Made by a program: the position numbers and the translations under genes. The notes under the pieces are model-generated. The model was not told the origin of the DNA, searched no databases, and saw only the letters and a list, made by a program, of their open reading frames with translations. 64,000 nt of DNA. Origin: a virus. The DNA lies in the IMG/VR virus record IMGVR_UViG_3300016476_000893, positions 2,211 through 66,210 of that record. One strand, given 5' to 3'. This document shows, in pieces, positions 44,529-63,077 of the stretch. Position 1 is the first letter of the stretch, and every line of letters begins with the position of its first letter.

Positions 44529-44529
44529 T

Positions 44530-45561
44530 TTATTCCTCGCAAACAATAGAAGGACAGCAAAGACTTAGTATGTTCCAGTATCTTTGTGGTGGATCATAAG
44601 ATCCAGCAAAATGTAAACCAGCAGCTTCTTCATCGACATACATAAGAACAGCCTTACCTTTTCTTCCAGTTAGATCGACATTTGGCTCATTTAAAAAACA
44701 CCCATCGGTGTCGTAGACATATACGGCCTCGCCTTCTAAAATACTTCCATAAGGAACACCATTAAAAGTCCTTTGCCTTATTTCTACCAAAGCGGATCTT
44801 GTTGTAGGATCGCTACTTACTATGATAAAACTAATTATTTGTAAAGGTTCTCCAATGGCAGTCCAAACTTTTCTACTATCATCCCATCTGATATCAACAG
44901 GGCCAGATTTCCATAAAGATGGGTTTCTAAATGCATCTGGATGAAACTCCCCACTAGCAGTTCCAGACGGAACTGGATTATCATTTGTATCATACCCCCA
45001 ACCAGTCAATATTAAAGGAGCTTTTAAACCTACAGACCTATTTATAACGTTTTCGCTATACCCTTTTGAAGCTAGTTCTTTATATATAGAAAGATCTTGA
45101 TAACTACCGTTACCAACAGATGTGAACGTATTTGATAAAGCGATATTATGTCCGCTTTCAAAAAAAACGTCTGTTTCAAAAAATTCTCCTGACGAGAAAA
45201 TATTGTTTGGGTTGAATGGGTTTAAACTATTTGAGTTTATACCACTGTTTGTTGGTTTTTCCCAATATGGAAGCGATGCATGAGCTTCACCAGTGTTGTG
45301 TACAATAAAAGGACAAAATATTCCATCAAGACTAACAAGCCCAATATTTTCAAAGTCATTCCCAATAGAATTCATTGCCGTTTGCACGGTGCATATACCA
45401 ACCTCAACAACACCAATATTCTTTTGATCTAAGATGTTTTCAGGGGTTAAGCCCTTGACTGGGCTAGAGCTGTCTTTTAATATTATCGTCTGTGTAGAAA
45501 CGCGGCCAGTTATAACTGCGTGCGTCGGATTGAGATTAGTAGAGGAGTTTCTGTTATCCAT
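44530..45561 (-). CDS. minor tail protein
   Basis: 343 aa, coupled; position after the large tail protein. Confidence 0.6.
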   Translation of the reverse strand: MDNRNSSTNLNPTHAVITGRVSTQTIILKDSSSPVKGLTPENILDQKNIGVVEVGICTVQTAMNSIGNDFENIGLVSLDGIFCPFIVHNTGEAHASLPYWEKPTNSGINSNSLNPFNPNNIFSSGEFFETDVFFESGHNIALSNTFTSVGNGSYQDLSIYKELASKGYSENVINRSVGLKAPLILTGWGYDTNDNPVPSGTASGEFHPDAFRNPSLWKSGPVDIRWDDSRKVWTAIGEPLQIISFIIVSSDPTTRSALVEIRQRTFNGVPYGSILEGEAVYVYDTDGCFLNEPNVDLTGRKGKAVLMYVDEEAAGLHFAGSYDPPQRYWNILSLCCPSIVCEE

Positions 45562-48500
45562 TATTTATTGATCCTAGAAAATTTCTGGGAGAATTTATTT
45601 AACCTGCGTACAATATACTCGTTTGCTCTACCAAATTTTGGAGCGAATGTTTTCATATTATACTGAGTTTCAACACGACTTGCTGATATAGAAACTGAAA
45701 TGTCAGAAACTAAAGGACCGTTTTCAACCAACGACTTACCTAAGTTCGTTATCTTTGGATAACCAGGAATTGTAACGCTAGCTTGCTCAGTGAAAAGATA
45801 GTCAAAGTTTGCTACACTATTTGCCAGCAACTGCCCAGCCAAGTCCATCCCCGCGTATCCAGACGTTAGCGTTAAATCAACACCGTTTATATTTATATCC
45901 ACCGGAAGAACATAATTTTCTGGAACAAGGTCTGTTATTTGTTCATATTCTATTTTTACTCCGTATGGAACATTTGTCTGTGTAGTCCAGGGTCCATAAA
46001 CATACCTGTTTGACTGTTGTGGTATTCCAAATGATTTTGGAGGAATAACCACTGGAAATGGAGCCAATGAGTCGGCATTATATCCACTATCTATAGATTT
46101 CTTAGAGTTGGTTGCCCCATCGCAATTACCAACAAGATCTTCTACGTAGTATTCTGGAGAAGTATTAAACACCGCGAGATGTTCTAAAGCAGCCACCACT
46201 CTTGGTGGAAAGACACGATTTGTCGTGACAAGAGCAAAAGGAGTGCAACCAAAACCATTTTCGTCTATTCTAAGATTTATCAAATACTCTATACTTGAAA
46301 CTATTTGAGGTCGTAGGTTTATTCTATCTTTACTGGCTTCGTACAACGGAATTGACAGTAAAGAGTAAGTTATTAAGTACGGGTTTGGAATAAGCAGATA
46401 TTCTTGATTAACATTTATAGGAACTGAGTTTAAAGTGTCGAAACCTCTGAACTGTGTTACAATTTCATCCTTAGAAAATTCGCTCATGTCGTAGTTTGAT
46501 ATTGACGGCAAATTATATGATAAAACAGACGACGATGGGCCAGACGGCAACTCTAAAACATTGAAAACTGCTTTATAGTTTGCGTATGCAGAAACTCTAC
46601 CATTATTTACGAACTTTCCATTTGGTGCTTCATAGTCATAATAATTTGGTGGGTCTAAATATGCGTCACTTGATATATCCCAACTCTTTATGAATGAATT
46701 CACTGGGGCTTGATCTTCTGAGTCGGACTTCACAGAGAAAGCAGGCATTTTAACAGCATAAGATTTTCCATAATGGTCTTGACCAATTTTAGATATTTTC
46801 TCGTGAAGCGACTTCATGAAAAACTCATACGCACCAACTTGATCAGAACCGCAAGAAGGCTCTTGATAAACATTAGAAGATGAAGTATTATACTTTAGCG
46901 AGTAATGTAGCCCGGCATTGTTAAGTGCTACTCCGGCGTATGTAAAATCTCCATTCTCTGTGAATAGAGGCATTTTTGCTGAATTGGTTGTACTTGAGAA
47001 AAAAGACTCTATAGCATAAACTTTTCCATACTTGTTATACATCATAAATTCTAACCAAGACTCATATCCAGCCATCGCGTGTCTTAATTCTCTTAGGCTG
47101 CAAGGGTAAATCCCATTGAACATTGCACCTTTGCTGTCGCCATAACTGCCTATAGTTGTGTTTCCAGAAATATCAAACGTGTCAATTAATATAAAGTCTA
47201 GATATTCATATGGACCCCACAGAAAAGGAGTTATTACAGGAACATTCCTGATATTAGAATCTTCTGTTAGATTTAATCTTCCGGCTATATTTATCTCGCC
47301 CCAATAACAGTAAACATCTGGAGATATGTCAGAATCTGAAGGTGGCGACGTTGAACATGTGCTACCAGTTATTTCTGGCGGTTTGTCATTATTAGGTAAT
47401 GTTGATATGTAATTTATTCTTGATTGATATCCACCAGTTATATACTTTGCACCAACAGCGTTTTCAGTCAAAGATATTTCTATGTTTGTAGATGAATATC
47501 TTTCTTTACTGTCTAAAGATATGTCTTCTACTGGGTAGTTACCACCATACGGCATGGATGCTACTGGTGGTCCGTCTGGGTGCAACGCGCCACTAACACC
47601 TATGTCTAGAGGAAGGTCTTTAGTTTGACCAAATCCACCAAGTTTATCTGAAGCTTCTTTTGTTATTACATCTCTAGACAAAGGAAATTTAATAGAGCTA
47701 AACGTGTTTCTATTTTGAGTCAATATTACTATCTGGCCACCGTAGATGGTGTTAGAGTATGTAAGATTTGGTGTTGTCGTTGATATATGACCAGAGGAAA
47801 AGTATTGACTGCCTTCGGTTGACGGTTTTAGTAAATCTACATAAAATATATGATTAGCCGCCTCGCAAACGTCTGCAACAAACTGCATTAAGTCTGTCGG
47901 TCTAACCCTGAAGTCATTCGGTATAAAAGCCGCTATCTGGTTTAGAAAGCTAAGAATGTCAAAATTGTAGGCATAGGCTTTATTTCCGCTTAGAGTATAT
48001 GAATTAGATCCATACACAATGTTGCCTCCGAGTGTTGGTGTCAGCGAAGCGTCTCCATTTAACAAGGCGTTTATAGCATTCGCAAATAGGTCAATCCTAA
48101 TGCCATCGCTATTTACAGCAGATCTTCCAAAGCCAGCCCCAGTCGCACCAAACGAATCATTTTCGTAGACCCCAAAAACATTTTGAACATTAAACACGTT
48201 CGACGGAGAAAGATTATTATTATAATTACCGAAATCTAAACATGTTGGTACATTTGGGCCATAAGCCTCAAGAGCACCTCCGTATCCTGGGTATACGTCT
48301 GTTATAACGCTGCACGATGACAATAAAATAGTTGGAGACTGAATTACTGCGGTATAAATTTTTGAGTCGCTTACAGATCGAGATACAGTTTTTAATATAC
48401 CATAAAACCTGAATATCGGCACATTGTTATTTGAGACTATTTCAAAATATTTAGGACTTCCAACAACAGCCTCTTCCGACAAATATTGACCATCTGATTG

Positions 48501-48722
48501 AATTAAGTTTATAGTGCATTGACCACCCTGTTGATCCCAGCTAGAATTACAGTTAAAATCAACAACAGTCAACCCAAGAAAAGTTTGTTCGCCAATATCA
48601 ATTGTCGAAGCAGACTCGCCATAATTTAGGTATGTTAATGCTGGCATTGATGTGCTCAATGCAGCCGATCCACCATTAACGCCACTACCAGAAGGCTCAG
48701 ATCCACCAGGTGTTATTCCCAT
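45561..48722 (-). CDS. large tail tip/hub protein
   Basis: 1053 aa, beta-rich, second gene after the tape measure gene; GGAG RBS. Confidence 0.65.
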   Translation of the reverse strand: MGITPGGSEPSGSGVNGGSAALSTSMPALTYLNYGESASTIDIGEQTFLGLTVVDFNCNSSWDQQGGQCTINLIQSDGQYLSEEAVVGSPKYFEIVSNNNVPIFRFYGILKTVSRSVSDSKIYTAVIQSPTILLSSCSVITDVYPGYGGALEAYGPNVPTCLDFGNYNNNLSPSNVFNVQNVFGVYENDSFGATGAGFGRSAVNSDGIRIDLFANAINALLNGDASLTPTLGGNIVYGSNSYTLSGNKAYAYNFDILSFLNQIAAFIPNDFRVRPTDLMQFVADVCEAANHIFYVDLLKPSTEGSQYFSSGHISTTTPNLTYSNTIYGGQIVILTQNRNTFSSIKFPLSRDVITKEASDKLGGFGQTKDLPLDIGVSGALHPDGPPVASMPYGGNYPVEDISLDSKERYSSTNIEISLTENAVGAKYITGGYQSRINYISTLPNNDKPPEITGSTCSTSPPSDSDISPDVYCYWGEINIAGRLNLTEDSNIRNVPVITPFLWGPYEYLDFILIDTFDISGNTTIGSYGDSKGAMFNGIYPCSLRELRHAMAGYESWLEFMMYNKYGKVYAIESFFSSTTNSAKMPLFTENGDFTYAGVALNNAGLHYSLKYNTSSSNVYQEPSCGSDQVGAYEFFMKSLHEKISKIGQDHYGKSYAVKMPAFSVKSDSEDQAPVNSFIKSWDISSDAYLDPPNYYDYEAPNGKFVNNGRVSAYANYKAVFNVLELPSGPSSSVLSYNLPSISNYDMSEFSKDEIVTQFRGFDTLNSVPINVNQEYLLIPNPYLITYSLLSIPLYEASKDRINLRPQIVSSIEYLINLRIDENGFGCTPFALVTTNRVFPPRVVAALEHLAVFNTSPEYYVEDLVGNCDGATNSKKSIDSGYNADSLAPFPVVIPPKSFGIPQQSNRYVYGPWTTQTNVPYGVKIEYEQITDLVPENYVLPVDININGVDLTLTSGYAGMDLAGQLLANSVANFDYLFTEQASVTIPGYPKITNLGKSLVENGPLVSDISVSISASRVETQYNMKTFAPKFGRANEYIVRRLNKFSQKFSRINK

Positions 48723-48733
48723 TTAATATTCTC

Positions 48734-50248
48734 CTAATAGTTGTTTATAAGGCTTGGGCCTTCATAAGTCCACTCTACAGTATATGAGTATTGTCCATTT
48801 TTTGGATTCCAAGACTCTGATGGTGCAGAATAATACACTTTTGTTCCGACTGGTTTGTATAAATCATATATTGTTTGCAAATCAGAATATGCTGGTTTTA
48901 CCATAGATGATCCACTAGGAGCCATGCTAGCATTAAGCTGTAAGGTTCTCTTATATTCAGACCTAGAATTAACATATTGAATTATAGGTTGACTTCTTCC
49001 TATTACAGGAATAATATTTATGATTTGTCCAGGATAAATATCAGATATTGTTATTTCTTCCGATAAAGCTCCTGATATCAAATTTGGAGGTCTATTATCA
49101 TAAGAATAATTGTACGAAATAGTTCCTTCCTGATAGTTTTTTCCTACACTTTTTGATAATTCAACAGTGTTTAATGAATACGCCCCGCCATAATATGAAT
49201 TTGCTCTAGAGTATATAACACCTGAAATTGAATTCCAATAGTTGTTTGCATTAACGTAGCTGTTTGCCGATCTATCTAATACTCCAGATGAATTTAATCC
49301 TTTTATTGTTCCGTTGATTTGAACCTTTGTTAAAGACCCTAGATCATTATCAATAGTTATTGAAACAGTCTCTGTCGCTAGCTGTCCAGAAGGAACAAGA
49401 GAAAATTCTTCTTCTATAGAATATGTTCCGTTGAAAGAATTTATATTCTCTACAACTTTTCTATCAACAACAGTCAATCCTGTAGACAACCCTAAATATC
49501 CAGACGGCATATTCGAATAACCAAGACCTATAACGTTGTGGACATAACCACTCGCTTGTTGAATTGGCGTGCTGGCCAATGTTCCATTGTTATAAACCCT
49601 TTGACCAACAGCAGAAGCAGAATGAGTAACTCTATATACTTTCTTTTGATCCTGTATATTTCCAGACGTAGCTGTATAACCACCATCTTCATTAAAAGAC
49701 CACGAATTCTGTGCGTCTGATATGTAATATTGAAACGAGTCTTCAGAAGAGTTACTGGAAAATAAACTATTGGAAGACTCAATGAATCTATTAGTTTTTA
49801 AAGTGGCTGTATATCCGCAGACGTTTGTCCATCTAGATTTGTCATCAAATTCTAAAGAATCTAACTCGCAATAAGCTTTAATACCTCTGTCTTGGTTAAA
49901 CCCAGTTATTTCTAACTTTATTCCAGACCCAGATGAAACCCCACTTGAAATAACATTCCTAAGAAACTCTTGTTTTTTCATTATAGACGTTAAATACGCT
50001 TCTGGCGTTATTGACGTATTTATAGGATCATCATCTGGAGAATAAGTGCTGTAGTGAACTCCTGTAGAATTTATTACTGAAGGGGTTACACCAGTGCTTT
50101 CTGGATTTCCTTTGTATGCTATTAAATCACCGTTAAGCGAAATAGTATAATCAGCACCAATAACTCCATTACTATTTTTAATGTAGTTTTTGGAAAATGT
50201 AACTAATGGTGCTGGAACTATATTTACGTTGTTTATTTTAACAGGCAT
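48734..50248 (-). CDS. distal tail-like protein
   Basis: 504 aa, beta-rich, immediately after the tape measure gene; GGAG RBS. Confidence 0.6.
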   Translation of the reverse strand: MPVKINNVNIVPAPLVTFSKNYIKNSNGVIGADYTISLNGDLIAYKGNPESTGVTPSVINSTGVHYSTYSPDDDPINTSITPEAYLTSIMKKQEFLRNVISSGVSSGSGIKLEITGFNQDRGIKAYCELDSLEFDDKSRWTNVCGYTATLKTNRFIESSNSLFSSNSSEDSFQYYISDAQNSWSFNEDGGYTATSGNIQDQKKVYRVTHSASAVGQRVYNNGTLASTPIQQASGYVHNVIGLGYSNMPSGYLGLSTGLTVVDRKVVENINSFNGTYSIEEEFSLVPSGQLATETVSITIDNDLGSLTKVQINGTIKGLNSSGVLDRSANSYVNANNYWNSISGVIYSRANSYYGGAYSLNTVELSKSVGKNYQEGTISYNYSYDNRPPNLISGALSEEITISDIYPGQIINIIPVIGRSQPIIQYVNSRSEYKRTLQLNASMAPSGSSMVKPAYSDLQTIYDLYKPVGTKVYYSAPSESWNPKNGQYSYTVEWTYEGPSLINNY

Positions 50249-50257
50249 TATCGACTC

Positions 50258-53200
50258 CTAGTTACCAGAAGATAAGTTTTTCTTAACCTGGGATGTTATA
50301 TTTCCAATTTCAGATTGAATATTTTCAAGAACTATTGATTTTAATACGTCTGGAAGTTTGGCTAAAAATTCCGCCCCGTTAAGGTTGACATTTACGCCAA
50401 CATTTTGTAAACTAATCTCAAACACCTTTGGCATTTCAACCAACTGTCTAACACTTTCGCTAAATCGCGAATTAAAATCGATTAAACTTTGAGTTAAAAC
50501 TGAATAGTCATTAGAATTAGAGCCGCCACCATTAAATCCTCCAGTTGAACCACTTCCAACAAGGCCGCCATTTGCAAACCCTTTTACTTTGGATTTGTTC
50601 ATATTATTTAAAGCTGGCAACCCAATGTCGCGAACAGCACTTTTCTTTAAAACAAATTCACCAGGGGTCAACATTGCCGGAACAATATCTTCTCTATTTT
50701 TATTTTCCTTCATTCTTCCAAAGATTGACTGAGGAGATCTTCCTTGCGGTTTTTCTCTAAACGACTCTATCATTTTTCTTCTATTTCTTATAGCCTCTTT
50801 CATTTTTATTGGATCGAAATTTTTAGATCCATAACCATAAGATTTTACAAGTTCATCAGCCTCTTTGATTTTTTGTTCATTTCCTTTTTGGATTATTTTG
50901 TTTAAATTGTTAACTGTTTCATCTGATGTATTGGTTGACAGTTGCGGAAGGTTATATTCCTGTATATCCTTGATTTTATTAGCATCATAAGCCTTTTCTC
51001 TAGCATCTTTTTCAGCACTAATTCTTGCTGCATAGGCTTTTGTACCTTTATAGTATGGATTTGCAGACATTTTACTAAGAGATTCCGCACCCCTCTTTCT
51101 ATCAAACTCTCTCTTTATCGCTTCTTTTTTATCTCTTTCAGCCTTTCTAGCTTGCGATATTCCATACATAGAATTTGAGCGGTCTATCAACTGTTGCTTT
51201 CTCTGCTGATATTGATAACCAATCATTAGTTGTCGTCTAACGTTTGGGTTTCTTTCCGTCTTTAGCCTTTCAGCAATTCTATCAAGCTTTGATAGTTCAG
51301 TTTGTGCAGTTTGCGCGGACTGTACATTTTGTTCAGCCAGCACGTTCTGTCTAGGTTTAACAACTGGTGTAGATGCTGCAGCTTTTTGAGATCTTTCCTC
51401 TTCACGTTTTTTACGAAACGTTTCTTCAACCTGTTGTTCCACAGATCTTTGGTCTGGATTTAAAAAGCTTTTTGCCATTGCTCCATAAGCATTTAGCACA
51501 CCACTAATATTACTTTTTGTGTCAAACTCTTTTGGTTGAACAACTTCTTGTTTAACCTGTTTAGCAGTCGATGTTGGTGATCCTGTATATTGAAATCTTT
51601 GTTTTATTGCAAATATTTCTGCTTCACTCAGAGGTCTTACATTTAAACCTTTTCTACTAGCACTAATTTCGTTTATTGTGTCATCTATAAGTTTCTGAGA
51701 CAATTTTTCTGGAGCACCAAAAATTTCTTGCATCAATAATTCATCAGACTGGTTTATTGAATAGCCACTAGCAACATTCTTAACGGTTTTTGCTGCATAA
51801 CGAAGAGCGTTTGGAAGTCCTAGCGGACCTCCAGTCATACCCTTGTATTGATCAAAAATCGCTACTTGATTGCCAGAACGTATTTCTCCAGATTTTTGTC
51901 TTATCGAGCTGATTGTGTCATTAACTAAATTCTGATCAAAAGCAAGTCTAGGATCGTTTAAATCTAAATTAGCTGTATCAATTCCTAGATTTTTAGCATA
52001 ACCAATTTTTCTTCTTTCCCTTAAATTAATGCTTTCAACTAAATCTACACCTTGCTTAAATGCAACGTCTGATTTGTAACGATTTCTAAAGTAGTCTGTT
52101 CTTTTATCGTATTTTACACCAGCAACCTCTATTATTCCGCCGTCGCTAGCATAAATAGTTCCAGTAGAATTCATTCTTTCCAAATTAGCCCTGCCAATTT
52201 TACCAACAGCAGATTTGCTCATAACAAATTCGCCAGGTGTTAACATCGCTGGAACAGTGTCGCTTCCTCTTGGTTTAAACACAGATCCTCCACCATTCAT
52301 ATTGGCGGCATTAAAAGATTGAGCTTCAATACGTTCAAGAGCTTTTAATTGATCAATTTGAGTTTGCGAGTCTTTCTTCAATTGCTCCAACATTTGTTTT
52401 TCTATAGGTATCATCTCATCCATTATAAACTTGACTTCTTCAGGCGAAGAGCCAGTAGATAATAAAAAGTTCTTAGTAACACCACGGATTATTTCATCGC
52501 CTTTAAGCCCGTTAAACACAGGAAGGTCTTTGAATTCAGTGAGAAAAGCCTTTAAAGACTGTCTATCAGACTCTCTTATATTGCCTATATTTCCAGTAAA
52601 AGAAAGAATTCTGGCTTGTTGCATGTTTTTCAAAAACTCTGACCTAGACTCTCTAGTGCCAAAAGCAAGATCTCCAGCGACTTCTCTTAATTTAGCCCTG
52701 TCTGATATCGATTTTTGCAAAGCTTTTTGTGCGGCGGATGTTTCTTGCGATGTATTTCCAAGTTCTTCTAAAGCAACTTTAAATGCATTCGCTTCAGTTT
52801 GCAGTGAACCCAACTCGTTCATAAGGTCTGTTGTTGTGTTACCAAATTCATCAATCGTCTTACTTGTTGCTATGAATGCGTCAATCTCTATCTGTTTAGC
52901 CTTGTTTTGCGAGATAGCGTTGCCTATAATATCAATATCGCGTTTTCCTCCAGAGAGATTCATCTTAGAGAGACTTGTTCCTTCTAACGCCTTAGAAACA
53001 TTAGAAAGTCGATTTTGTAATGCGGTTTGATATTCAGCAATAGGGTTTTCACCAAAAATGTCTGCAATAATATCAGCGATCATTTTGTTGTTAGACTGTT
53101 GTGCTTTCTGAATAGAGATGGACTGGTCTAGTTGTTTAGCTTCAAACTCAACTCTATTTTTCAATACTTCTGCGTAATTATTAAATACGTTTGTTATTAA

Positions 53201-56200
53201 GTCTAGAGGTTTTTGTAACGCATTAGCTTTATCAGACAGAATCTTATTCAACAACTCAGTAGGATCTTCTCCGCCTAATATTTGCGATCTTATATTTTCT
53301 TCCAGATCTCCTAGGTTCATACCTTCAAAAATAGCCATAACCTGTTCTGCCAATTCAGCTCTTTGTGCCTGAACAGCGTTTTGGTTAGTTCCTAAGTTTA
53401 TTGTTGGCAAGCGAGACGCTAGTTCAAATTTTGCCATATCAAAAGCGTTTATCTCGTTCTGGAACGATTTCACAGTTTCTGATAAACCTGGAAACGCTTG
53501 AGATACAGAATCGAGTGCGTTTTTAAAGTTTTGAGATCTAGTATTATCTAGCTCAAAATTACTTAAATCAACCTTTTCTAAATACGATAATCCAGACTTA
53601 GAGAAGTTGATAGATCTAAGTGATCTGCTTTGTATTGTAAGTGTTTTGCTCCATTTTTCTGTAGCTTCGTTTATACCTCTTTGTAGCTTAACAGACCTAA
53701 TTTGTGCCTCTACAAGAGATGCTTTAGAAGCAGCTTCTGCCTTCAATACATTCTGTAGAACATTGAATTCTGTTATAAAAGATTTTAACCAATCGGTGTT
53801 ACCAGTTGCGACAGCAATTCTATTAAGACCGTCAGCTATTTTAGGATTCTTTTTAGATATTTCGTCAAACGACATCCCAGCGAATTCAGCACTTTTCGCC
53901 AAGGATGAAAACATATCCATAAAATCTTTAAACGCTACTTGGCTAGTTTCTAAACCTTTATCTCTACCTAAAAATATTTCTCTAGATTTTTCAAAAATGT
54001 TTATATACTTACTTATAGACTGCTCTAATTGATCTAAAGATTTTGAAGGGTCGGTTCTTCCAAATTTATCAAAACTTTCTTTAGCTATAGCCACCTGTTT
54101 TTCAGCAGATGATATCTGCGCATTTTTATATGCATCCATAGCCTTTGCGTCTATTTGATCTTGATAAGACGTAAGACCTAAGAAGTCTGTAAAATTAGTT
54201 ATAGAATTAACAAAACCAAATAAAGCACCGCTAGCAGCGCCAACAGCCAGCCCTAATGGTCCAAATACAGCTCCAATTGAAGCCCCTACTGTAGAATAGA
54301 ACTGCATATTTCCAGACTTCATTTCTTCTTGAGCGGCTGTTCTAGCAGCTTTTTCTGCACCAGCGGCGTCACCAGCTTTCTGTAACTCTTCTGAAAGAGT
54401 TAATGCGTTTTGAGAGGCTTTGTCTAATGACGAAGTGAATGCAGCTAATGCAAGAGAAGCAACTTCTGGACCAAATGAACTAACCGCTGTTTTTGCAAAA
54501 CCTCCAACTTTTGAGAAAAAGCTTGTTTTTTTAGGGAGGGCACCCTCTAACGACTTTATATTAGATTCAATTAAAGCTAGTTCATCTTTTGAGGAAAGGT
54601 CGAGAGCTGCAGCAGCCTCTTGTTTTTCTTTTAAAAGTTTCTTATTTTGAAGAATTATATAATATTCTTGCAAAGAGCTTTCGTTTAGTTTATTTGCCAA
54701 ATCAGAAATGGCTGCTATCTGTAATTTTATTTCACCAGGTAGTGATGATTGTATCTTGCTTATAGCCTCAACAATTTTTGAGTTGTATTTATATTTGTTT
54801 TTCACATCATATATTAAAGCCTTTAGTTGTTGTTGATCTTTAGGATCTATTGGGCTGACAACATTACCTGTTGCTGAATTAGAAGATGTAGATCCTTTTT
54901 GTGGTTGTTGCGTCGGTGATCCGGAAGCTTTTTTTAAAGCAGCTAGTGCTGCGGCCTGTTGTGATGTAGTAGGTTGTGGCGATGTAACAGACTGCTTAAA
55001 GGCTAACGCCGCAGTGTTTTGTGATATTATATTAGATACTACATTATTTAAATCTTTAAAAATATCCTTTGGTGTTAATTGTTTCGTAGATCTAGAAGCT
55101 TCTGCAGAAGAAATTTTAGCCTCAATTTGTTTTATTTCGCTATCAGCCTTTGTTTTTTTTGTGTTTAAATCGCTTGTTGTTTGAGCAAGCTCTTTTCTTG
55201 CTTCATCTAATTGTCTAGTTATTTCTTCAGTTTTTTTTGCTTGCTCAGCACTGCTTTCGCCAAATGCCTTAATTTTTTGAGCAAAAAACTCTGTAAAATT
55301 AATTGCCAATCTCATTTGTAACGTTAGCAAGCTAAAAGAATTAGCTAGTGGTCCAAGTTTATCACCAACAAAATTAAGAGATTGAAGTAATCCTGTGTCA
55401 ATGCTTAAATTAGTGTCAGACATTCCAGCAACGACGCCGCCATCAGCAAATTTTTGGATTTTTGATACAACTCCGCCCTTGGCGTATCTGTTTATTTTCT
55501 TTAGATTGTTATAACCAAACTGCTCTGCTGATCTTTTATTTACAACAAACTCGCCTGGGGTTAATAATGCCGGTACAGTATCTGTTCCAACAGGACCGCC
55601 AGTGTTCATTTTAGTGATGTCTTCTCTCTTATTTCTAAGCTTATCTATATAGAGAGTTATTTCCTTGTCTGAAGGATTCACAATGTCTTTATTTTTTGTG
55701 AATTTTTTCAGATATGAATTTTTACTATTTAATGTTTTAGAAAGAAGATTTAGATACCTGTCGCCAGTTAATGTTTTTCCGTATTTAGGATCTGACTTGG
55801 CTTCGCCATAAAGAAAGTCTAAATATGCGTTGTCGCCAGTGGTTTTTAATCTATATTTTTTAGCAACCATTGCTTCAAAGGCGTTTCCTTTAATTTTTGC
55901 GCCAGGGTTTCCTAATTTTACACCTTTAATATATTCAGCAACCAACTTTTTGTCAGAAGATGATAGAGGGTCAAATTCTTCTATTTCATAGTTAATATAT
56001 GTTCCGTCTTTGTCTTGCCAATTGCTAGTGGAATTTATTTTTCTCATTAAATGAGACTTGCCTTGAATTTTTGGGTTCATGGCCTTTAATTGTTCAGTCT
56101 CTACGACACCACCTTTTCCATACTTATTTATACTGGATAAATTTTTAACGCCAATTGCTTTTACAGCACTTTTGCGTATCACGAACTCACCAGGCGTCAA

Positions 56201-57631
56201 CATTGCAGGAACAGTATCGCCATTTCCAACACCAGGAATGAGACCGCCAGTAGCAGCTCCTATAACTCCAGAACCACTTCCTCTTTTTGGCAGTCTTTTT
56301 AGACCGCCAGCAATTAAACTTCCTAAAGATCCAACAACTTTGACAGCGGCAAAGGCAGCTAACAGAGGGAGTAAACCTTTCACAGCTCTAGTTAGTGATA
56401 GCACTACATCTGTAACCTCTAGAAGCCCCGCTGTTAAAAATTTAAATGTGGCTGTCTGTGTTATTTCCGTAATCAATGCGGAGAAATTAGCCCGCAGTTC
56501 GTCTATTTTAAATGCTAAAGTTTCCTTCGCTTTTGCTGCATCTATATCTGACTCTGCAGACGCTTTATTTGCTATCGCCATAGCTCTCTGTGCTTCTTTG
56601 AAGTTATCCAACAAAGCAACTACTCTAGACAGTTGATATATACCACCAATCTGCTCGACAACATTAGCAAATTCTACATCTCCAGATTTTATGCCAGCTT
56701 GCTCAAGACCTTCTGTAATTCTTTTTATTGCCTCAAAACCACCAACAAACTCGCCATTAAGTCTTCTTAGTTCAATACCTCTCTTTTTGAAGAAGTTTAC
56801 AGTTTCTGCCCTTTGTAATCTACCTAAAATAGCTCTAAAACCAGTAGCAATAGTTTCAGAAGATTCTCTAGAATAAGATCTTACAGACGTAAATAACGCA
56901 ATCAACTCTTCAACATTTCCACTAGCAGCCTTAAATGCACCACCAGCCCTTGTTATAGCATCAACAATGTCGTTAGACTCTACGGCAAACGCCTTAGAAA
57001 CGACGTTTATCGTCTCTAAGGCTTTTGTGGCATCATTCACGCTAAGATCAAACGCAGACATTAAAGCAATAAAAGCCTCTGTAGTTTTATTTAAATTGTC
57101 AAAAGTACCTATCAAGGTTGTTTTTGCTAATGACTCAGCAGCTTTCAGGGATTCTTTTAGCGACAAACCAGCCTGAGCCAAAACTCTAACGAGTTCGGCT
57201 GTTTTTGTTTGAGCCAATCCATAATTTTTGCTGATATTTAAAATCTCATTAGAATATTCTTTAGCAGAATCAACGCTTATATTGACTGTTTGAGCCAATA
57301 CAGAAAGTTCTTTTTCAAATCTAATTGCTTCAGTAACAGCAGACGCTATATACAGCCCGAGGTTTTTAACTGCGTTTGTAGCAATAGCGTATGAAGCGAA
57401 GTTGACACCTTTAAGAGCCACAGCTTCAGCAAAGTTATCAGCGGTTGACAAAGCCTTTTTTTGAGCCTTGGTTAAATCGTCGATGTTTGCGGCAGCGGCT
57501 CTAAGATTTTTAGTATCAACCGTAAAGCCGATGCCGGTGAGAGCTTTTTCTATATCGTTTCTGATTTTGCCCAAATTTTGTGTAGTTGGAGATTGTAAAG
57601 TCAACTGCATGTTTATGTTGTAAGTGGGCAT
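50258..57631 (-). CDS. tail tape measure protein with repeated modules
   Basis: 2457 aa, Ala/Lys/Glu-rich helical; N-terminal TP901-like TMP domain (AIRFEKEL...AQAG); GAGGTG RBS. Confidence 0.92.
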   Translation of the reverse strand: MPTYNINMQLTLQSPTTQNLGKIRNDIEKALTGIGFTVDTKNLRAAAANIDDLTKAQKKALSTADNFAEAVALKGVNFASYAIATNAVKNLGLYIASAVTEAIRFEKELSVLAQTVNISVDSAKEYSNEILNISKNYGLAQTKTAELVRVLAQAGLSLKESLKAAESLAKTTLIGTFDNLNKTTEAFIALMSAFDLSVNDATKALETINVVSKAFAVESNDIVDAITRAGGAFKAASGNVEELIALFTSVRSYSRESSETIATGFRAILGRLQRAETVNFFKKRGIELRRLNGEFVGGFEAIKRITEGLEQAGIKSGDVEFANVVEQIGGIYQLSRVVALLDNFKEAQRAMAIANKASAESDIDAAKAKETLAFKIDELRANFSALITEITQTATFKFLTAGLLEVTDVVLSLTRAVKGLLPLLAAFAAVKVVGSLGSLIAGGLKRLPKRGSGSGVIGAATGGLIPGVGNGDTVPAMLTPGEFVIRKSAVKAIGVKNLSSINKYGKGGVVETEQLKAMNPKIQGKSHLMRKINSTSNWQDKDGTYINYEIEEFDPLSSSDKKLVAEYIKGVKLGNPGAKIKGNAFEAMVAKKYRLKTTGDNAYLDFLYGEAKSDPKYGKTLTGDRYLNLLSKTLNSKNSYLKKFTKNKDIVNPSDKEITLYIDKLRNKREDITKMNTGGPVGTDTVPALLTPGEFVVNKRSAEQFGYNNLKKINRYAKGGVVSKIQKFADGGVVAGMSDTNLSIDTGLLQSLNFVGDKLGPLANSFSLLTLQMRLAINFTEFFAQKIKAFGESSAEQAKKTEEITRQLDEARKELAQTTSDLNTKKTKADSEIKQIEAKISSAEASRSTKQLTPKDIFKDLNNVVSNIISQNTAALAFKQSVTSPQPTTSQQAAALAALKKASGSPTQQPQKGSTSSNSATGNVVSPIDPKDQQQLKALIYDVKNKYKYNSKIVEAISKIQSSLPGEIKLQIAAISDLANKLNESSLQEYYIILQNKKLLKEKQEAAAALDLSSKDELALIESNIKSLEGALPKKTSFFSKVGGFAKTAVSSFGPEVASLALAAFTSSLDKASQNALTLSEELQKAGDAAGAEKAARTAAQEEMKSGNMQFYSTVGASIGAVFGPLGLAVGAASGALFGFVNSITNFTDFLGLTSYQDQIDAKAMDAYKNAQISSAEKQVAIAKESFDKFGRTDPSKSLDQLEQSISKYINIFEKSREIFLGRDKGLETSQVAFKDFMDMFSSLAKSAEFAGMSFDEISKKNPKIADGLNRIAVATGNTDWLKSFITEFNVLQNVLKAEAASKASLVEAQIRSVKLQRGINEATEKWSKTLTIQSRSLRSINFSKSGLSYLEKVDLSNFELDNTRSQNFKNALDSVSQAFPGLSETVKSFQNEINAFDMAKFELASRLPTINLGTNQNAVQAQRAELAEQVMAIFEGMNLGDLEENIRSQILGGEDPTELLNKILSDKANALQKPLDLITNVFNNYAEVLKNRVEFEAKQLDQSISIQKAQQSNNKMIADIIADIFGENPIAEYQTALQNRLSNVSKALEGTSLSKMNLSGGKRDIDIIGNAISQNKAKQIEIDAFIATSKTIDEFGNTTTDLMNELGSLQTEANAFKVALEELGNTSQETSAAQKALQKSISDRAKLREVAGDLAFGTRESRSEFLKNMQQARILSFTGNIGNIRESDRQSLKAFLTEFKDLPVFNGLKGDEIIRGVTKNFLLSTGSSPEEVKFIMDEMIPIEKQMLEQLKKDSQTQIDQLKALERIEAQSFNAANMNGGGSVFKPRGSDTVPAMLTPGEFVMSKSAVGKIGRANLERMNSTGTIYASDGGIIEVAGVKYDKRTDYFRNRYKSDVAFKQGVDLVESINLRERRKIGYAKNLGIDTANLDLNDPRLAFDQNLVNDTISSIRQKSGEIRSGNQVAIFDQYKGMTGGPLGLPNALRYAAKTVKNVASGYSINQSDELLMQEIFGAPEKLSQKLIDDTINEISASRKGLNVRPLSEAEIFAIKQRFQYTGSPTSTAKQVKQEVVQPKEFDTKSNISGVLNAYGAMAKSFLNPDQRSVEQQVEETFRKKREEERSQKAAASTPVVKPRQNVLAEQNVQSAQTAQTELSKLDRIAERLKTERNPNVRRQLMIGYQYQQRKQQLIDRSNSMYGISQARKAERDKKEAIKREFDRKRGAESLSKMSANPYYKGTKAYAARISAEKDAREKAYDANKIKDIQEYNLPQLSTNTSDETVNNLNKIIQKGNEQKIKEADELVKSYGYGSKNFDPIKMKEAIRNRRKMIESFREKPQGRSPQSIFGRMKENKNREDIVPAMLTPGEFVLKKSAVRDIGLPALNNMNKSKVKGFANGGLVGSGSTGGFNGGGSNSNDYSVLTQSLIDFNSRFSESVRQLVEMPKVFEISLQNVGVNVNLNGAEFLAKLPDVLKSIVLENIQSEIGNITSQVKKNLSSGN
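50651..56218 (-). repeat. four protein-level repeats D(T/I)VPA(M/L)LTPGEFV inside the tape measure gene
   Basis: Cores at 56180-56218, 55544-55582, 52223-52261 and 50651-50689. Confidence 0.93.
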
Positions 57632-57647
57632 ATATCACCTCTAATTA

Positions 57648-58412
57648 TTATACAGGGGTATCGTCTTCAAACTCTAACGAATCTAGAACAGAGTCGTCTA
57701 TAACTGGGTTGTTGTTAATGTCGATTCTTTGTCCCTTGGAGTCTACTCTAGCCCCATTGTCGTCAAGCAGATTTCCTTCAAAATCTACTCGTCTACCTTG
57801 CTTATCAACAAGATTTCCTTTACTATCTATTCTGTTGAGCTTCTTTAAAACTTTATTTTCTAATAGGCTATTTTCAAAGTTTTCTTCAAGCCCGTACATA
57901 TAAGCGGCGAACTTGCCAGCCAATACATTAGCTAGTTCTGTTGCAGACTTCTCAATATATTCATCTACAGACGAGTATACTGGTTTTTGCGTCTTATAAT
58001 CATAAGCACACGCTGAAACTAAATAGTTAAATCTGGCACTTTCTGCTTGACCTTCAGCAGTTAGACCGTCTAAAGAGTTTCTGTCAGACATCAATTCTGA
58101 CATTTCAACTCTTAATCGTTTCAATTCGATAGCTTTATTAACTACTTCAGAGGCTTTGGTTATTTTTCCAGACTTTATCTTATATTCAATATCTGCACTC
58201 TTTTTAATAAGCGACAAATATTCTTCTTGCTTTGCGTCGTCCCATAAACCCTGTCGTCTCATATAATCTTCAAGACTCTTTTTCAAAATAGCCCCTTCAA
58301 CAAGAGCTTTATTGAAACTTTTTGCGTAAACCTTTGTTGCTTCCGCAAGAACTTCAGACGATACTGGTTTTATAAAATATGTACCTTCTTTAAAATCAAA
58401 TGTTTCAGCCAT
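57648..58412 (-). CDS. putative tail assembly chaperone
   Basis: 254 aa directly upstream of the TMP; helical; C-terminal D.QG.RVD..G repeats. Confidence 0.55.
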   Translation of the reverse strand: MAETFDFKEGTYFIKPVSSEVLAEATKVYAKSFNKALVEGAILKKSLEDYMRRQGLWDDAKQEEYLSLIKKSADIEYKIKSGKITKASEVVNKAIELKRLRVEMSELMSDRNSLDGLTAEGQAESARFNYLVSACAYDYKTQKPVYSSVDEYIEKSATELANVLAGKFAAYMYGLEENFENSLLENKVLKKLNRIDSKGNLVDKQGRRVDFEGNLLDDNGARVDSKGQRIDINNNPVIDDSVLDSLEFEDDTPV

Positions 58413-58414
58413 TT

Positions 58415-58720
58415 TTAGTTCCTTTTGATTGGTAAATCGATATGAAATCTATTCCACACTACATCGTATGAAGATAGTTCCGATTCTATGTTTCTAATCT
58501 GAGCGTTCCCTTTGTCCAATATTTCAGATCTTAGTTCTTCAAAAACCTCTCGAAGCCTCTCTTGTTGTGGCGTCACATCTTGATTTTCAAATCCCCACAT
58601 CTTACCAAAATATTTTTCAATACTGGCAATCGCTCCTATCATTGTTGTATTGATTCTCTTATTTATTTCTTTTCTTAATCGATCTTTTGATCGATCATTC
58701 ATCGCCTTTTTCTTATCCAC
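58415..58720 (-). CDS. hypothetical protein (tail operon)
   Basis: 101 aa, GGAG RBS. Confidence 0.65.
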   Translation of the reverse strand: MDKKKAMNDRSKDRLRKEINKRINTTMIGAIASIEKYFGKMWGFENQDVTPQQERLREVFEELRSEILDKGNAQIRNIESELSSYDVVWNRFHIDLPIKRN

Positions 58721-58722
58721 TA

Positions 58723-59724
58723 TTATCTCCTAGATTTGTTCGACTGCATTTGAATTTCCCGTCTCACATGAGAAAGTTCCATTTCATTCAAATGTCCGTG
58801 TTCTTTAAGGTCTTGTCTCTTAGAATTCAAAACAGCCATACCATAACCATCATTGAGCGATATAACTTGTTTTTGTTCTTCTAAGCTGTTAACTGGTATA
58901 AACAACTCACCAGCATCTTTATTATTGCTAGGCATTAAAGATTCAGCTCGTTTTTTATCGCTCTCCTCTTTTCTTTTCCTAGATTGAAGTATCATCCATC
59001 CGTCGAAAGCAATATCATCGTTTATAACTTCTTCTGTTGGTGGGTCAACCGACTCATGAACGCTATCATAAAATCTAGACCAAGAAATTAAAACGACTTG
59101 TTCGTTAGTCAGCTCATTAGCCGATCTATCAAACAAGCCGTCTACAGTTTTAGAAGCACCCCAAATAGTTTTCCATTCATGACTCTTTGCCACTTCCCTT
59201 ATTGTTGTTTCCTGTAAAGACTTGTCATTAAATGCAGAAACCAATCTTTGTATATTTATTCTATCTTTTACTGAATGCAAATTATCTATATAAGACGATT
59301 TTTCAAGCAAAAAAGCTAATTTAAAATAATTAGCAGTGTATTCACAAGTTTTGTCGTAGAATTCGTTTTTTTTTAACAGTAAAGAAGAAAGCTTATCGTT
59401 AAAACAATCTATGTTGTACTTAATGTGTTTGGTTCGCTCTTTAATAGCAAATCCTAAGTAATAATCAACCTTTGCCTGTTCTATTTTTTTTACCAATGAA
59501 GATAGTTCGTTTTCGTGTTCTTCAGTCCAAGAACCATTTTTTAATAAAAACTCTTCAGCAGAATCTACTGTAAAACAGTCGTTATAAAAACAGTCTTCGT
59601 AAATCTTCTCAGCCAAGAAATCCGCTAAGATTTTATCTTCTAGGCGAAAAGGTTTAACGAAGACCGTTTGGTTTTCAACCTCAAGAATGACTACTCCGGA
59701 AAGTAGTCTGTTGATATAATTCAT
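58723..59724 (-). CDS. hypothetical protein / putative tail assembly chaperone
   Basis: 333 aa between the tail tube gene and the TMP. Confidence 0.6.
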   Translation of the reverse strand: MNYINRLLSGVVILEVENQTVFVKPFRLEDKILADFLAEKIYEDCFYNDCFTVDSAEEFLLKNGSWTEEHENELSSLVKKIEQAKVDYYLGFAIKERTKHIKYNIDCFNDKLSSLLLKKNEFYDKTCEYTANYFKLAFLLEKSSYIDNLHSVKDRINIQRLVSAFNDKSLQETTIREVAKSHEWKTIWGASKTVDGLFDRSANELTNEQVVLISWSRFYDSVHESVDPPTEEVINDDIAFDGWMILQSRKRKEESDKKRAESLMPSNNKDAGELFIPVNSLEEQKQVISLNDGYGMAVLNSKRQDLKEHGHLNEMELSHVRREIQMQSNKSRR

Positions 59725-59750
59725 TCCTTTGATGTCCTAAAGTGTTTATA

Positions 59751-60965
59751 TTAGAAGTGGTTTTTCCAGTAGTTGGCACTTCCGATATGTCCAAGCAATG
59801 GGTCGCCAGAATGGAGAATAACAAAGTCGTTTGATGTGGTAAAGCTGTATGCAATTGTAGCGTTACCGCCGCCAGTGTCATTACCGCCATAAGTGACAGT
59901 AGTTACTTTATTTTTATTACCGAGGCTGATCACAGTGCTATCATCTAAAACGAACTGGATAGAGTGATCGCTAAGGTTCTTTGCGTTTCCACTAGCTGTG
60001 ATATTGTCTCCGCCAGCCGCTGTTATCTCGATATCGGTAGTAACGTCAACAGGGAAAGAGACGTATCTGTTATAAGGTAGTTTTTGACCTAAAGTATTAG
60101 TTTGTTCTCTACCAAGGTCTACGCTAACAGAAACACTATTTAGATAAACACCGCTATCAATATTTACATAACCACAGTTTGTAGAAAGACCGCCACCAGA
60201 ACCTGGAATTCCAGAACCAGTGCTTGTGACACCCGGAATAAAATTAGGAACGACTGTTCTGAAAGTCTTGCCGCCATATGTCATTCCTGTAGAACCAGTA
60301 ACAAAGTTCTGTCTACGTAGAACGCTGCCATTAGGAGAAGCTGGAGAGTCGTTGCCAAATATTGTTCCGAACGCAGAAACGACAATACCACTGTTTGTAA
60401 GAACGCCGTTTTGAGAGCCACCAAGCCATTGCTTGTCGTTACCAACGAAAGTGGTTGATTCTGTAAAGTTTCCGTCTGTTGCAAGACTGTATGATACTGA
60501 GCTGACATACATTCCGCTAGAATAAAGTTCTGCAACAGCAGAGTCGCCAGCATTTACAGCCGTATCTGAAGTTAAACCTACAACAGCTCTAATATCCGCT
60601 CTGGCGTCTGCTCTACCAACCAAGGTTGGGTTAATAGCAGTTGACGTTCCCAAGTGATATATTAGGCTATAGCCATCAAGAACCTTTTCAAAGGTAATTT
60701 CAATATCAGGAACTTCTTCATAGTTTTCGTATAGAGAAAGTTGAGCAAGTTCAAATATTTTCTCTAGATTGAAGTTTGTCGTAATACCACACGACTGTAG
60801 TCCGTGAACAATGGTAATGTTTCCACTACCAGTAATCACGGAATCACCAGCCCCCCAACTATCCTGTACTGTTGATGCACCCATATCTCCGACAGCTACT
60901 GCTTGAGTAGCGTATATCACTCTTTTGTTATTGCTTGTGCTTGAAAATGGCATATTAATCTCCAA
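59751..60965 (-). CDS. major tail (tube) protein
   Basis: 404 aa, Gly/Ser/Thr-rich beta composition; two similar half-folds (VHGLQSCGITTNFN..IFELAQ / LNSVSVSVDLGREQ..TLGQK); position after the neck genes; strong RBS. Confidence 0.72.
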   Translation of the reverse strand: MEINMPFSSTSNNKRVIYATQAVAVGDMGASTVQDSWGAGDSVITGSGNITIVHGLQSCGITTNFNLEKIFELAQLSLYENYEEVPDIEITFEKVLDGYSLIYHLGTSTAINPTLVGRADARADIRAVVGLTSDTAVNAGDSAVAELYSSGMYVSSVSYSLATDGNFTESTTFVGNDKQWLGGSQNGVLTNSGIVVSAFGTIFGNDSPASPNGSVLRRQNFVTGSTGMTYGGKTFRTVVPNFIPGVTSTGSGIPGSGGGLSTNCGYVNIDSGVYLNSVSVSVDLGREQTNTLGQKLPYNRYVSFPVDVTTDIEITAAGGDNITASGNAKNLSDHSIQFVLDDSTVISLGNKNKVTTVTYGGNDTGGGNATIAYSFTTSNDFVILHSGDPLLGHIGSANYWKNHF

Positions 60966-60988
60966 TTATTGTGGTGAATTGTATAATT

Positions 60989-61921
60989 TTATACTCCAAA
61001 CAGAATACACTCGGTAGTTATTTTAACTGCACCAACATGTATGTCTGGAGTTAATGAGTATATTGAATCAAATCGTGAATTTATTATTCTTATATCTGTA
61101 CCTGGAAAATTAGTCACAAGTTCTGGATACGTCATTGCTCCGCTGACTGGAACGCCTCTATAATCTACTGGAAACGCAGATCCAGAGGATACAAGGTTTA
61201 AATCATAAGATTTTACAACCTTTTGATTTTGCATTGTGACAATATCTACTAAGTTGTCTCTAGTGTACGAATCTTCAGCAACACAGTATAAAATAAAGTC
61301 AGTAAACACCGTTTGTCCGCCGCCTAGCTGAAATGGCTTCATTGATCTAACATTCGACGTTTCAACACCAATAATCGGCAGTTGATATCTATTGTCAGAT
61401 AATACGCTGTTCTCGCCACTGTTATTTACCTCAGACCTTTTTTGTATCTCTTTAAACCAATTCAGTCCATTGGCTTGGCATACATTAACAAGTTTGTAGC
61501 TATAACGACATTCGACGTTACTAGCTGTGCTTATCGGTGAATTAAAAATAACCCTACCTAAATAATGATTTATGTAGTGCGAATATACTCCAGTTTCAGA
61601 AGACGGATGAAAACTATTATTAATATATACTCCAGAGACGCCAGGATAAGCGGAGTTGTTGCTGGTGTATGCTCCAAGGCCACTTTCCCAAACCCAGTTC
61701 GATCTTATACCTTCCCAAACCTGGCCGTAGCTGTATCTAGGGTCATTAACCAGTTTTAGTTTATGATAAAGATCTCCATAAACGCCAGTGCTAGGTATAT
61801 CAACATTAATAATGTTATTTTTTTCCATCAAGCCATAATCAAAAAACGATATAAGGTTTTCCCTTATATGATTAGTTAGGGTGCTGTCTCCTATACTGGA
61901 AAAACCCTTTAAGAAGCTCAT
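60989..61921 (-). CDS. neck / tail-completion protein
   Basis: 310 aa; YQLPIIGVE...GGGQ pattern; position upstream of the tail tube gene. Confidence 0.55.
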   Translation of the reverse strand: MSFLKGFSSIGDSTLTNHIRENLISFFDYGLMEKNNIINVDIPSTGVYGDLYHKLKLVNDPRYSYGQVWEGIRSNWVWESGLGAYTSNNSAYPGVSGVYINNSFHPSSETGVYSHYINHYLGRVIFNSPISTASNVECRYSYKLVNVCQANGLNWFKEIQKRSEVNNSGENSVLSDNRYQLPIIGVETSNVRSMKPFQLGGGQTVFTDFILYCVAEDSYTRDNLVDIVTMQNQKVVKSYDLNLVSSGSAFPVDYRGVPVSGAMTYPELVTNFPGTDIRIINSRFDSIYSLTPDIHVGAVKITTECILFGV

Positions 61922-62595
61922 ATGGCAATCTCTTTCACTATAAATGCTCTTATTTGAGGTATTGTATTGTTTATTGCTCTAGTTATGAAATTATCTTCTT
62001 CTGTTCCAGAGTGCTCAGGATCTACCATAAAGCCAGCACTTCTGACTGGCCCGCCCTTATCTGTATACACCATCATAGCTTGATTTGACCGACCAAGCCC
62101 ATCTTCGTAATAAACATAGAAGTTGCTAATAATAACTTGTGTTCCACGAGTCATTAGCCATTCTAGCCAATTTATTCTTCCGTCTATACCATAGTTAGTA
62201 ACCCAATACCCATCGCTGATGTACGAACCATTTTTTATATACTTATACACATCTGGATTGGGCAGAAGCATTAAAGTAAAGGAAGCTAGTAAATCATCAG
62301 CCTTGCGAGACTTTGTATACAATATTTGTATGTTTGACGTTAAGTATTCTACAATTGAATCTACAGCTTCTATAGCCATAGAATCAGTCAAACCAAAATC
62401 GGCCTGCAATATTCCACCAAGCAAAGATGATACAGTTTCAGACTTATTAAGTTCCCCTTTTAATGTCTCCCTGGCGAACATCTCTATACCTAATATTTTA
62501 GATCTAATAATTTGGTCAACCTTCTCGGCTAATGCAAAAAATATATTAGCTTTTAACTGATTTGGAGTGTCAGTAAAACTTAGTCTAGCTGGCAT
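61918..62595 (-). CDS. neck/morphogenesis protein
   Basis: INWLEWL..RG...DNFITRAI; ATG 62595 overlaps the upstream stop (TAATG). Confidence 0.55.
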   Translation of the reverse strand: MPARLSFTDTPNQLKANIFFALAEKVDQIIRSKILGIEMFARETLKGELNKSETVSSLLGGILQADFGLTDSMAIEAVDSIVEYLTSNIQILYTKSRKADDLLASFTLMLLPNPDVYKYIKNGSYISDGYWVTNYGIDGRINWLEWLMTRGTQVIISNFYVYYEDGLGRSNQAMMVYTDKGGPVRSAGFMVDPEHSGTEEDNFITRAINNTIPQIRAFIVKEIAI

Positions 62596-63077
62596 TAAAC
62601 TCTTTTCCAGTAGCAAACAAAATAATTATTGTCCAACCCGTGCTTTACTGGCTCTCCAGATTTTTCAAATCTCCATTCTTCGTGGCCGTTTTTACCAGTG
62701 TGTACTATCAAAGCGGAACTTTTATTTACCTTTGATATGTCTGAATATTTTCCGATAGTCATAATTGATCCATCCGGAAGACTTATATTCGATATTTTTT
62801 TGAAATCTTTTTGGGTCCAGTAAACTCTGAGCGTTATATTTTCTGTAACCTCTACAGTTTTAAAAGACTGTTCAGATCTGGCAAAAGAATTATCAGGAGA
62901 TATCTGCTGAAGATTCATTACCTTTTTCTGTTTTGATACAGGAACCTCAGAGTTAATTTCTTGAATTTTATCTGTATGCACGAGTTTACACTGGACGCCA
63001 AAACCCGATAAGTCTAACATCATATCGGCGACTTCAGAGTATTTTGAAAACAATCCAGACGGTAAGGTCATAGTCAT
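62595..63077 (-). CDS. putative head-closure protein
   Basis: 160 aa, beta-rich; position in the head-tail joining region. Confidence 0.5.
   Translation of the reverse strand: MTMTLPSGLFSKYSEVADMMLDLSGFGVQCKLVHTDKIQEINSEVPVSKQKKVMNLQQISPDNSFARSEQSFKTVEVTENITLRVYWTQKDFKKISNISLPDGSIMTIGKYSDISKVNKSSALIVHTGKNGHEEWRFEKSGEPVKHGLDNNYFVCYWKRV

Follow-up and report, generated by a model that had tools for sequence, protein, structure and literature searches.

Why a phage tape measure protein (TMP) should carry the same short peptide module four times, at uneven intervals along its length, is the question raised by one gene in a 64,000-nucleotide stretch of viral DNA (positions 2,211 to 66,210 of IMG/VR virus record IMGVR_UViG_3300016476_000893; hereafter the window). 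The answer favored here, held with slightly more belief than doubt, is that the protein bears four old, position-specific copies of a general, lambda-type TMP element, which may act as joints in maturation or docking. The gene is that of a TMP with a TP901-1-type core, as two models match above their cut-offs: Pfam PhageMin_Tail (PF10145) at residues 128-312 (E 4.9e-24; 85.7 bits, cut-off 33.2) and TIGR01760 (tape_meas_TP901) at residues 92-429 (E 1.8e-25; 89.7 bits, cut-off 28.8). Several PHROG TMP families match the 2457-amino acid (aa) open reading frame (ORF), and it has same-strand neighbors of suitable size on either side, where tail assembly chaperone genes and distal tail or hub genes would be expected to flank a TMP. 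The gene and its four modules of 50-60 aa are placed as follows:

50258..57631, minus strand: tail tape measure protein gene (P0001), 2457 aa, with Pfam, TIGR01760, and PHROG matches
56096..56257, minus strand: module 1, aa 459-512, profile E 7.9e-29
55460..55609, minus strand: module 2, aa 675-724, profile E 1.8e-26
52124..52303, minus strand: module 3, aa 1777-1836, profile E 3.9e-33
50552..50728, minus strand: module 4, aa 2302-2360, profile E 1.9e-33, at a lambda-like position ~100 aa from the C-terminus

The module consensus consists of (F/Y)-A-x-G-G-x-V on both sides of a core, D-T-V-P-A-M-L-T-P-G-E-F-V, which is followed by K-x-A-V-x-x-I-G-x-x-N-L-x-x-x-N. In this protein, cores of the form D[TI]VPA[ML]LTPGEFV begin at residues 472, 684, 1791, and 2315, exactly where a preliminary description of the sequence had placed them, and each continues as K.(A/S)(V/A)..(I/F)G...L..(I/M)N, which bears out the extension K.AV..IG..NL..(I/M)N proposed there. 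The GG motifs said to flank every copy are present downstream of all four (KGG, KGG, DGG, and NGG for copies 1-4) and upstream of copies 1-3 (TGG, TGG, and GGG), whereas copy 4 has only FG upstream. The modules are the sole internal repeats in the TMP (E 1e-9 to 2e-12 by pairwise BLAST of protein parts), and a degenerate 29-nucleotide back-translated pattern finds exactly four sites, which are the four modules, with none in 100 shuffles.

Between the four copies, the 14-aa core is identical at 11-13 of 14 positions in the protein versus 31-35 of 42 in the DNA, and over 36 codons the copies differ at 17-27 third positions versus 8-13 first or second positions; because the core copies differ mostly at third positions, selection acts on the peptide, as had been proposed. 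The accompanying statement that the DNA copies differ mostly at synonymous sites holds for the core, outside which many of the differences are non-synonymous. On the sequence evidence, the module is a discrete unit, maintained by purifying selection, with which TMPs are punctuated. Resemblances of the core to the S24/S26 peptidase hairpin 'SM.PTL..GD.V' and to ThiS/MoaD 'L..GD.V...GG' were dropped, as the element is too short and has no profile support, and a trimer prediction of the module from a 131-row alignment (score 0.05; predicted local distance difference test, pLDDT, ~42) gave no verdict and no evidence either way.

Spread and descent of the module

The preliminary description had suggested that a profile of the module be built and that TMPs with several copies be collected, and both were done. 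A four-copy profile, scored against 1.84 billion protein-cluster representatives, matches 16,303 of them at E<=1e-3 and 1,045 at E<=1e-30; the best 150 of the 16,303 have 3-10 copies and lengths of 1,649-7,872 aa. Complete ORFs on viral contigs (n = 61) form a less biased sample than these best 150, and 1, 2, 3, 4, and 6 copies are found in 22, 16, 14, 8, and 1 of them, respectively. Small TMPs often have just one module without an insert, and copy number rises with TMP length (Spearman 0.80 and 0.87). Two TMP-like proteins, P0002 and P0005, have 7,794 and 7,872 aa with 10 and 9 modules, respectively, and so exceed the 5,002-aa TMP of phage P23-45, the tail of which measures 800 nm (PMC10770324). 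One further locus (L046; IMG/VR 3300047157_000188) has two separate module-bearing frames, of 1565 aa (two modules) and 776+ aa (one module), which may represent a split TMP, a frameshift, or an assembly error.

The module is also found in annotated TMPs of Gordonia, Mycobacterium, Rhodococcus, Burkholderia, Nitrincola, and Stenotrophomonas phages and, in cyanomyophage S-SM2, in the gene at the TMP position, next after baseplate hub gp26; its 13-residue core is almost invariant across phages of Proteobacteria, Cyanobacteria, and Actinobacteria. A 131-row profile searched against all PDB sequences matches Douge gp16 (two copies; E 4.6e-16), lambda gpH 731-789 (E 1.9e-7), and JBD30 gp46 1015-1078 (E 0.0056), and the four-copy profile matches lambda gpH over 753-785 (E 7.4e-4). 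No Pfam family covers the module as a unit (in lambda, PF09718 stops at residue 701); TIGR01541 includes the lambda module region within a 332-position model. Judged by these alignments, the module is homologous to elements in the lambda, Douge, and JBD30 TMPs and belongs to TMPs in general. The TMPs of actinophages (Douge gp16, Orion gp28, and those of BoyNamedSue, Clawz, and GuyFagieri) have 1-3 internal copies of the same module, compared with four here; they are long, with material beyond a module that includes SLT lysin domains, whereas no enzyme domain is recognized here, and their N-terminal core is TMP_3 or none, in place of TIGR01760/PF10145.

Copies 1-2 of the present protein enclose 162 aa (513-674), copies 2-3 enclose 1052 aa, and copies 3-4 enclose 465 aa (1837-2301), close to the ~160 and ~470 aa first reported for the two outer intervals. 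The same short-long-short spacing is seen in 53 of 62 four-copy proteins (medians 285, 1101, and 412 aa), and the family layout runs from the core and a hydrophobic stretch through a module, ~160-290 aa, a module, ~1100 aa, a module, ~260-750 aa, and a module to a tail of ~100 aa; the two-bracket spacing is the architecture of a large family that is common in uncultured phages. Relatives at 30-45% identity (P0108, P0140, P0147, P0080, P0110, P0121, and P0138) keep four modules at matching places, and a tree built from 38 modules of ten relatives sorts them according to position and not according to protein (8 label changes versus 21.6 when shuffled). As the copies group by position, they are old paralogues kept in place and not recent duplicates or products of concerted evolution.

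Position in known tape measure proteins and possible roles

In lambda gpH, a hydrophobic stretch, a Gly-rich linker, FATGG, GEFV, IG..NL, YATGG, and a C-terminal helix follow one another, and the same order is found here. The module of lambda-like TMPs lies 60-140 aa from the C-terminus, behind Tape_meas_lam_C and a Gly-rich stretch; module 4 of the present TMP ends 97 aa before the end of the protein. A cut in the Gly-rich region divides lambda gpH into gpH* and gpHC, the latter of which remains at the tip (PMC12617516). The lambda module lies between the hydrophobic and Gly-rich stretch and the C-terminal coiled coil that plugs into the tail tip, which puts it in the gpHC piece, and its place just after the cleaved Gly-rich region makes a link of the module to processing plausible. 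T5 pb2 is similarly cut after R1127, between a hydrophobic stretch and the C-terminal part (PMC10038345). Within aa 1122-1150 of pb2, the cut is followed by AEGG...GEHGTEVV, which by eye is like an A-x-G-G flank with a GE.V core and serves as a lead only.

On average across 151 first modules, hydropathy is highest at -80..-41 and Gly makes up 24-39% at -40..-11, an order that lambda gpH 691-745 shares; this hydrophobic and Gly-rich lead-in is confined to the first module of long TMPs and here to module 1, while modules 2-4 have short Gly-enriched flanks and no hydrophobic lead-in. Lambda differs in having one copy, compared with four here, three of which are far from the C-terminus, and in its N-terminal core, which is TMP_2, whereas that of the present TMP is of another family (TIGR01760/PF10145); furthermore, of the two, cleavage is known for lambda gpH only. 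The C-terminal tail, which is conserved in P0077, P0110, P0080, and P0140, was likened by eye to lambda gpH 790-853. Lambda gpH helix 818-849 sits on gpI in the tail tip, and the tail of the present TMP would correspond by position to this tip-docking end, with the docking role taken over from the lambda, Douge, and JBD30 structures.

If the modules are maturation or docking joints, TMP chains would be held or cut at the modules during tail maturation, as at the equivalents in lambda gpH and T5 pb2. The TMP would then exit the tail with its C-terminal end leading, segment following segment, and the inter-module segments would be lineage-specific TMP parts, one possibly nuclease-like and the others devoid of a recognizable enzyme. 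The narrower proposal, in which the modules and their glycine flanks have no fold of their own and serve as joints for holding or cutting the bundled TMP chains in maturation, is drawn by analogy and is tentative, the balance of probability lying against it. The preliminary description had spoken of a processing, folding, or translocation signal; the lambda position lends plausibility to the first of these, and no such role has been shown anywhere.

A number of observations weigh against joints of this kind. For lambda itself, neither the exact cut site nor the protease is known (PMC12617516); the module-matching residues are unmodeled in the lambda, Douge, and JBD30 cryo-electron microscopy (cryo-EM) structures, and no structure or experiment provides a role. 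The module profile does not match T5 pb2, for which the likeness is by eye only. The lead-in that goes with cleavage in lambda and T5 is confined to the first module, and the internal copies may therefore not be cut. The TP901-1 TMP has the same N-terminal core family as the present protein (TIGR01760), followed by hydrophobic regions (PMC5099701), yet at 937 aa, unlike this 2457-aa TMP, it has no module copy by profile, and the module is thus not essential to TP901-1-type TMPs. Lastly, a purely structural role tied to length would account just as well for the higher copy number of longer TMPs. Two further lines of inquiry proved unusable: TP901-1 deletion genetics, as the TP901-1 TMP is without a module, and a possible cutting after GG by lambda gpK (JAB domain), as no gpK-like protein is recognizable among the neighbors.

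A purely structural and uncut element, i.e., one that provides periodic docking sites, one for every several hundred residues, for a conserved assembly partner (the tail assembly chaperone or the tube lumen) or staples that keep the TMP chains in register, is unlikely but is the strongest of the alternatives. Such an element would scale in number with length, as observed, and would keep its positions over long divergence; likewise, the gap at the matching residues in three cryo-EM structures is as expected for a flexible or symmetry-mismatched piece. Set against this is the near-invariance of the core across phages of three bacterial phyla. Tube and chaperone proteins of such phages are highly divergent, and a fast-evolving phage partner is therefore improbable for so constant a core. 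The spacing, moreover, is uneven (162, 1052, and 465 aa) and not periodic.

Segments between the modules

The remainder of the protein is divided into the following parts:

56345..57358, minus strand: TP901-1-type TMP core, aa 92-429, with TIGR01760 and PF10145 matches
56258..56449, minus strand: hydrophobic stretch, then Gly-rich linker into module 1, aa ~395-458, as read from the sequence
55610..56095, minus strand: inter-module segment 1, aa 513-674, apparently a small domain with KG.AFE ... LD ... GE.K, conserved in relatives
52304..55459, minus strand: long central segment, aa 725-1776, with an S/T/Q/P block and a Gly-zipper stretch
50729..52123, minus strand: inter-module segment 2, aa 1837-2301, the second half rich in K/R/E/Q, without a recognized domain
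50261..50551, minus strand: C-terminal tail, aa 2361-2457, with a Gly-rich linker, a short strand-like stretch, and a terminal helix-like stretch

The preliminary description took the modules to fence off swappable cargo (513-674 and 1837-2301), by which the TMP would become an effector-delivery platform. This is doubtful, although parts of the proposal have found some footing. The closest relative, P0077 (64-76% identical), is without aa ~481-690, i.e., one module and the first segment, so that a chimeric module remains; to judge from the alignment, the difference is a deletion or insertion between two modules. A cassette system is not needed for such a change, as deletion between direct repeats is expected from any repeat. 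The other differences seen when close relatives were compared, as had been suggested, lie in blocks that are not bounded by modules (aa 820-1010 and 2011-2100). The first of these coincides with a low-complexity S/T/Q/P block of the central segment that differs even between near-identical relatives: fragment P0054 is 94-100% identical to the present TMP except over aa 820-1010 (window ~54600-55170), where identity is 7-53%. A module-bounded swap was rejected for this block because module 2 ends at residue 724, and as the block is divergent in both P0054 and P0077 it is better regarded as a local hypervariable stretch. The central segment also contains a Gly-zipper hydrophobic stretch (~1113-1145), with weak matches to Gly-zipper Pfam families.

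Segment 1 offers the cargo proposal its most suggestive sequence and also one of its difficulties. KG.AFE, LD, and GE.K are invariant in its five closest homologues and stand in the order of a PD-(D/E)xK site, while more distant homologues (P0080, P0108, and P0138) keep FE and D and have lost ExK, the acidic and Lys residues being partly lost in these three relatives. Language-model comparisons hint weakly at Hjc, Mrr_cat, and PDDEXK_16 (scores 0.78-0.79), and the segment is possibly a small, nuclease-like domain. Homologues occur in 13-14 of ~150 proteins, always directly after module 1, and the segment has descended vertically within a clade and is not swapped. The segment has no Pfam, NCBIfam, or significant PDB-sequence match; a search for stand-alone homologues found none, and a scan of viral contigs gave only two further loci. 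AlphaFold2 models of module 1, the segment, and module 2 (5-row alignment; mean pLDDT 40) and of the segment alone (15 rows; pLDDT 51) are of low confidence and contain helices, and the segment's earlier characterization as non-helical is accordingly not established; Foldseek with the latter model returned nothing at E<1 from the PDB and AFDB clusters.

Segment 2 aligns only with P0077, as a lineage-specific cargo might, and has no Pfam or NCBIfam match. On the whole TMP, these two databases recognize only the TMP core and no catalytic domain. The picture is similar in the family at large: among 139 representative inter-module segments of 90-650 aa from 150 multi-copy TMPs, Pfam matches are limited to Peptidase_M78/DUF6782 and Crystallin, in single members. 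The matches to Peptidase_M78 (IrrE-like) and to the metallopeptidase family DUF6782 possibly fall in the same one of the 139 segments. In favor of the cargo proposal stands the E...D...(E/D)xK pattern of segment 1; against it, only 1-2 of 139 segments match any Pfam family.

Enzymes inside TMPs have been published, namely a peptidoglycan hydrolase motif in gp17 of TM4 (PMC1796659) and the virion RNA polymerase gp96 of Thermus phage P23-45 (PMC10770324), and the notion of a TMP that delivers functions is thus not a new one. These two TMPs and T5 pb2 carry functional parts into the cell, whereas the present TMP is without a recognized catalytic domain. In the TMP of Gordonia phage BoyNamedSue, residues 1543-1633 form an SLT lysin domain that is situated between two modules and adjoins one of them (1626-1675); in the Clawz and GuyFagieri TMPs, by contrast, the SLT domain is downstream of the last module. 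Given this varying placement and the variable blocks that respect no module boundary, bracketing by modules is not a rule, and the 22 of 61 complete ORFs that have one module have no bracket at all.

A variant of the favored idea regards the TMP as a polyprotein that is cut beside each module by the activity that makes gpH* and pb2*, with the resulting separate proteins, including the nuclease-like domain, injected before the DNA; this would be a surprise. In a role directed at the cell envelope, the module would bind or act on a universal host component (e.g., peptidoglycan) after expulsion of the TMP, which could account for a sequence kept across phages of very different hosts and for the adjoining SLT domain in BoyNamedSue; in addition, the module-equivalent part of T5 pb2 contains a short 'metallopeptidase motif' reported to be muralytic (PMC10038345). 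The modules here are without the His of that motif, and T5 pb2, as noted, is not matched by the profile. A LysM-like cell-wall-binding repeat was also considered and dropped, as 131 modules gave no LysM match and no recurrent Pfam family even at E<=10; the envelope-directed role is thus given little credence. An artefact, or a recent and insignificant tandem duplication, merits virtually none in view of the empty shuffles, the divergence of the copies at synonymous sites, and the positions kept in relatives at 30-45% identity.

Genomic setting and significance

The source record comprises 69,423 bases (completeness 46% by CheckV) and is that of a large, poorly charted uncultured phage; megablast of the TMP gene against 50,697 phage records gave no match. 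The public protein cluster for the gene (P0152) begins at Met8 of the ORF (window 57610-57631), and the true start may consequently lie 21 bases downstream of the first ATG. Directly upstream of the TMP are two small ORFs:

57648..58720, minus strand: two ORFs of 101 aa and 254 aa, described by position only

These occupy the usual place of tail assembly chaperones, for which position is the sole basis. None of the ten same-strand ORFs flanking the TMP (42840-50248 and 57648-62616, minus strand) matches a PHROG or Pfam family; they are presumably structural, and the largest has 1053 aa. Elsewhere in the window are a ribonucleotide reductase, a DnaB-like helicase, a split DNA polymerase, and a UvsX-like recombinase. 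PHROG models match the ribonucleotide reductase large subunit (16516-19275, plus strand) in two pieces (aa 1-154 and 620-918), with ~460 aa in the middle that are unexplained and are possibly an intein or another insert. The DNA polymerase is found in two ORFs (28280-30118 and 32287-33831) that correspond to the N- and C-terminal halves of one PHROG model and are separated by ~2.2 kb of DNA low in GC (0.288) with a reverse-strand ORF (30451-31551), which may be a mobile insertion.

No description of the reiterated module as an organizing element of TMPs was found in the literature searched. It is among the best-conserved stretches in an otherwise fast-evolving class of proteins, and it adjoins the region in which lambda gpH is cut; how TMPs are cut in tail maturation and what the C-terminal piece does are open questions even for lambda (PMC12617516). 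The present gene is a modest example, with four copies and no recognizable enzyme, of an element that is found elsewhere in up to ten copies in giant TMPs of uncultured phages. If the module marks sites of cutting or docking, it would explain the organization of very long TMPs and would offer, in lambda and in cultured actinophages, a concrete mutable target for the study of TMP maturation and exit.

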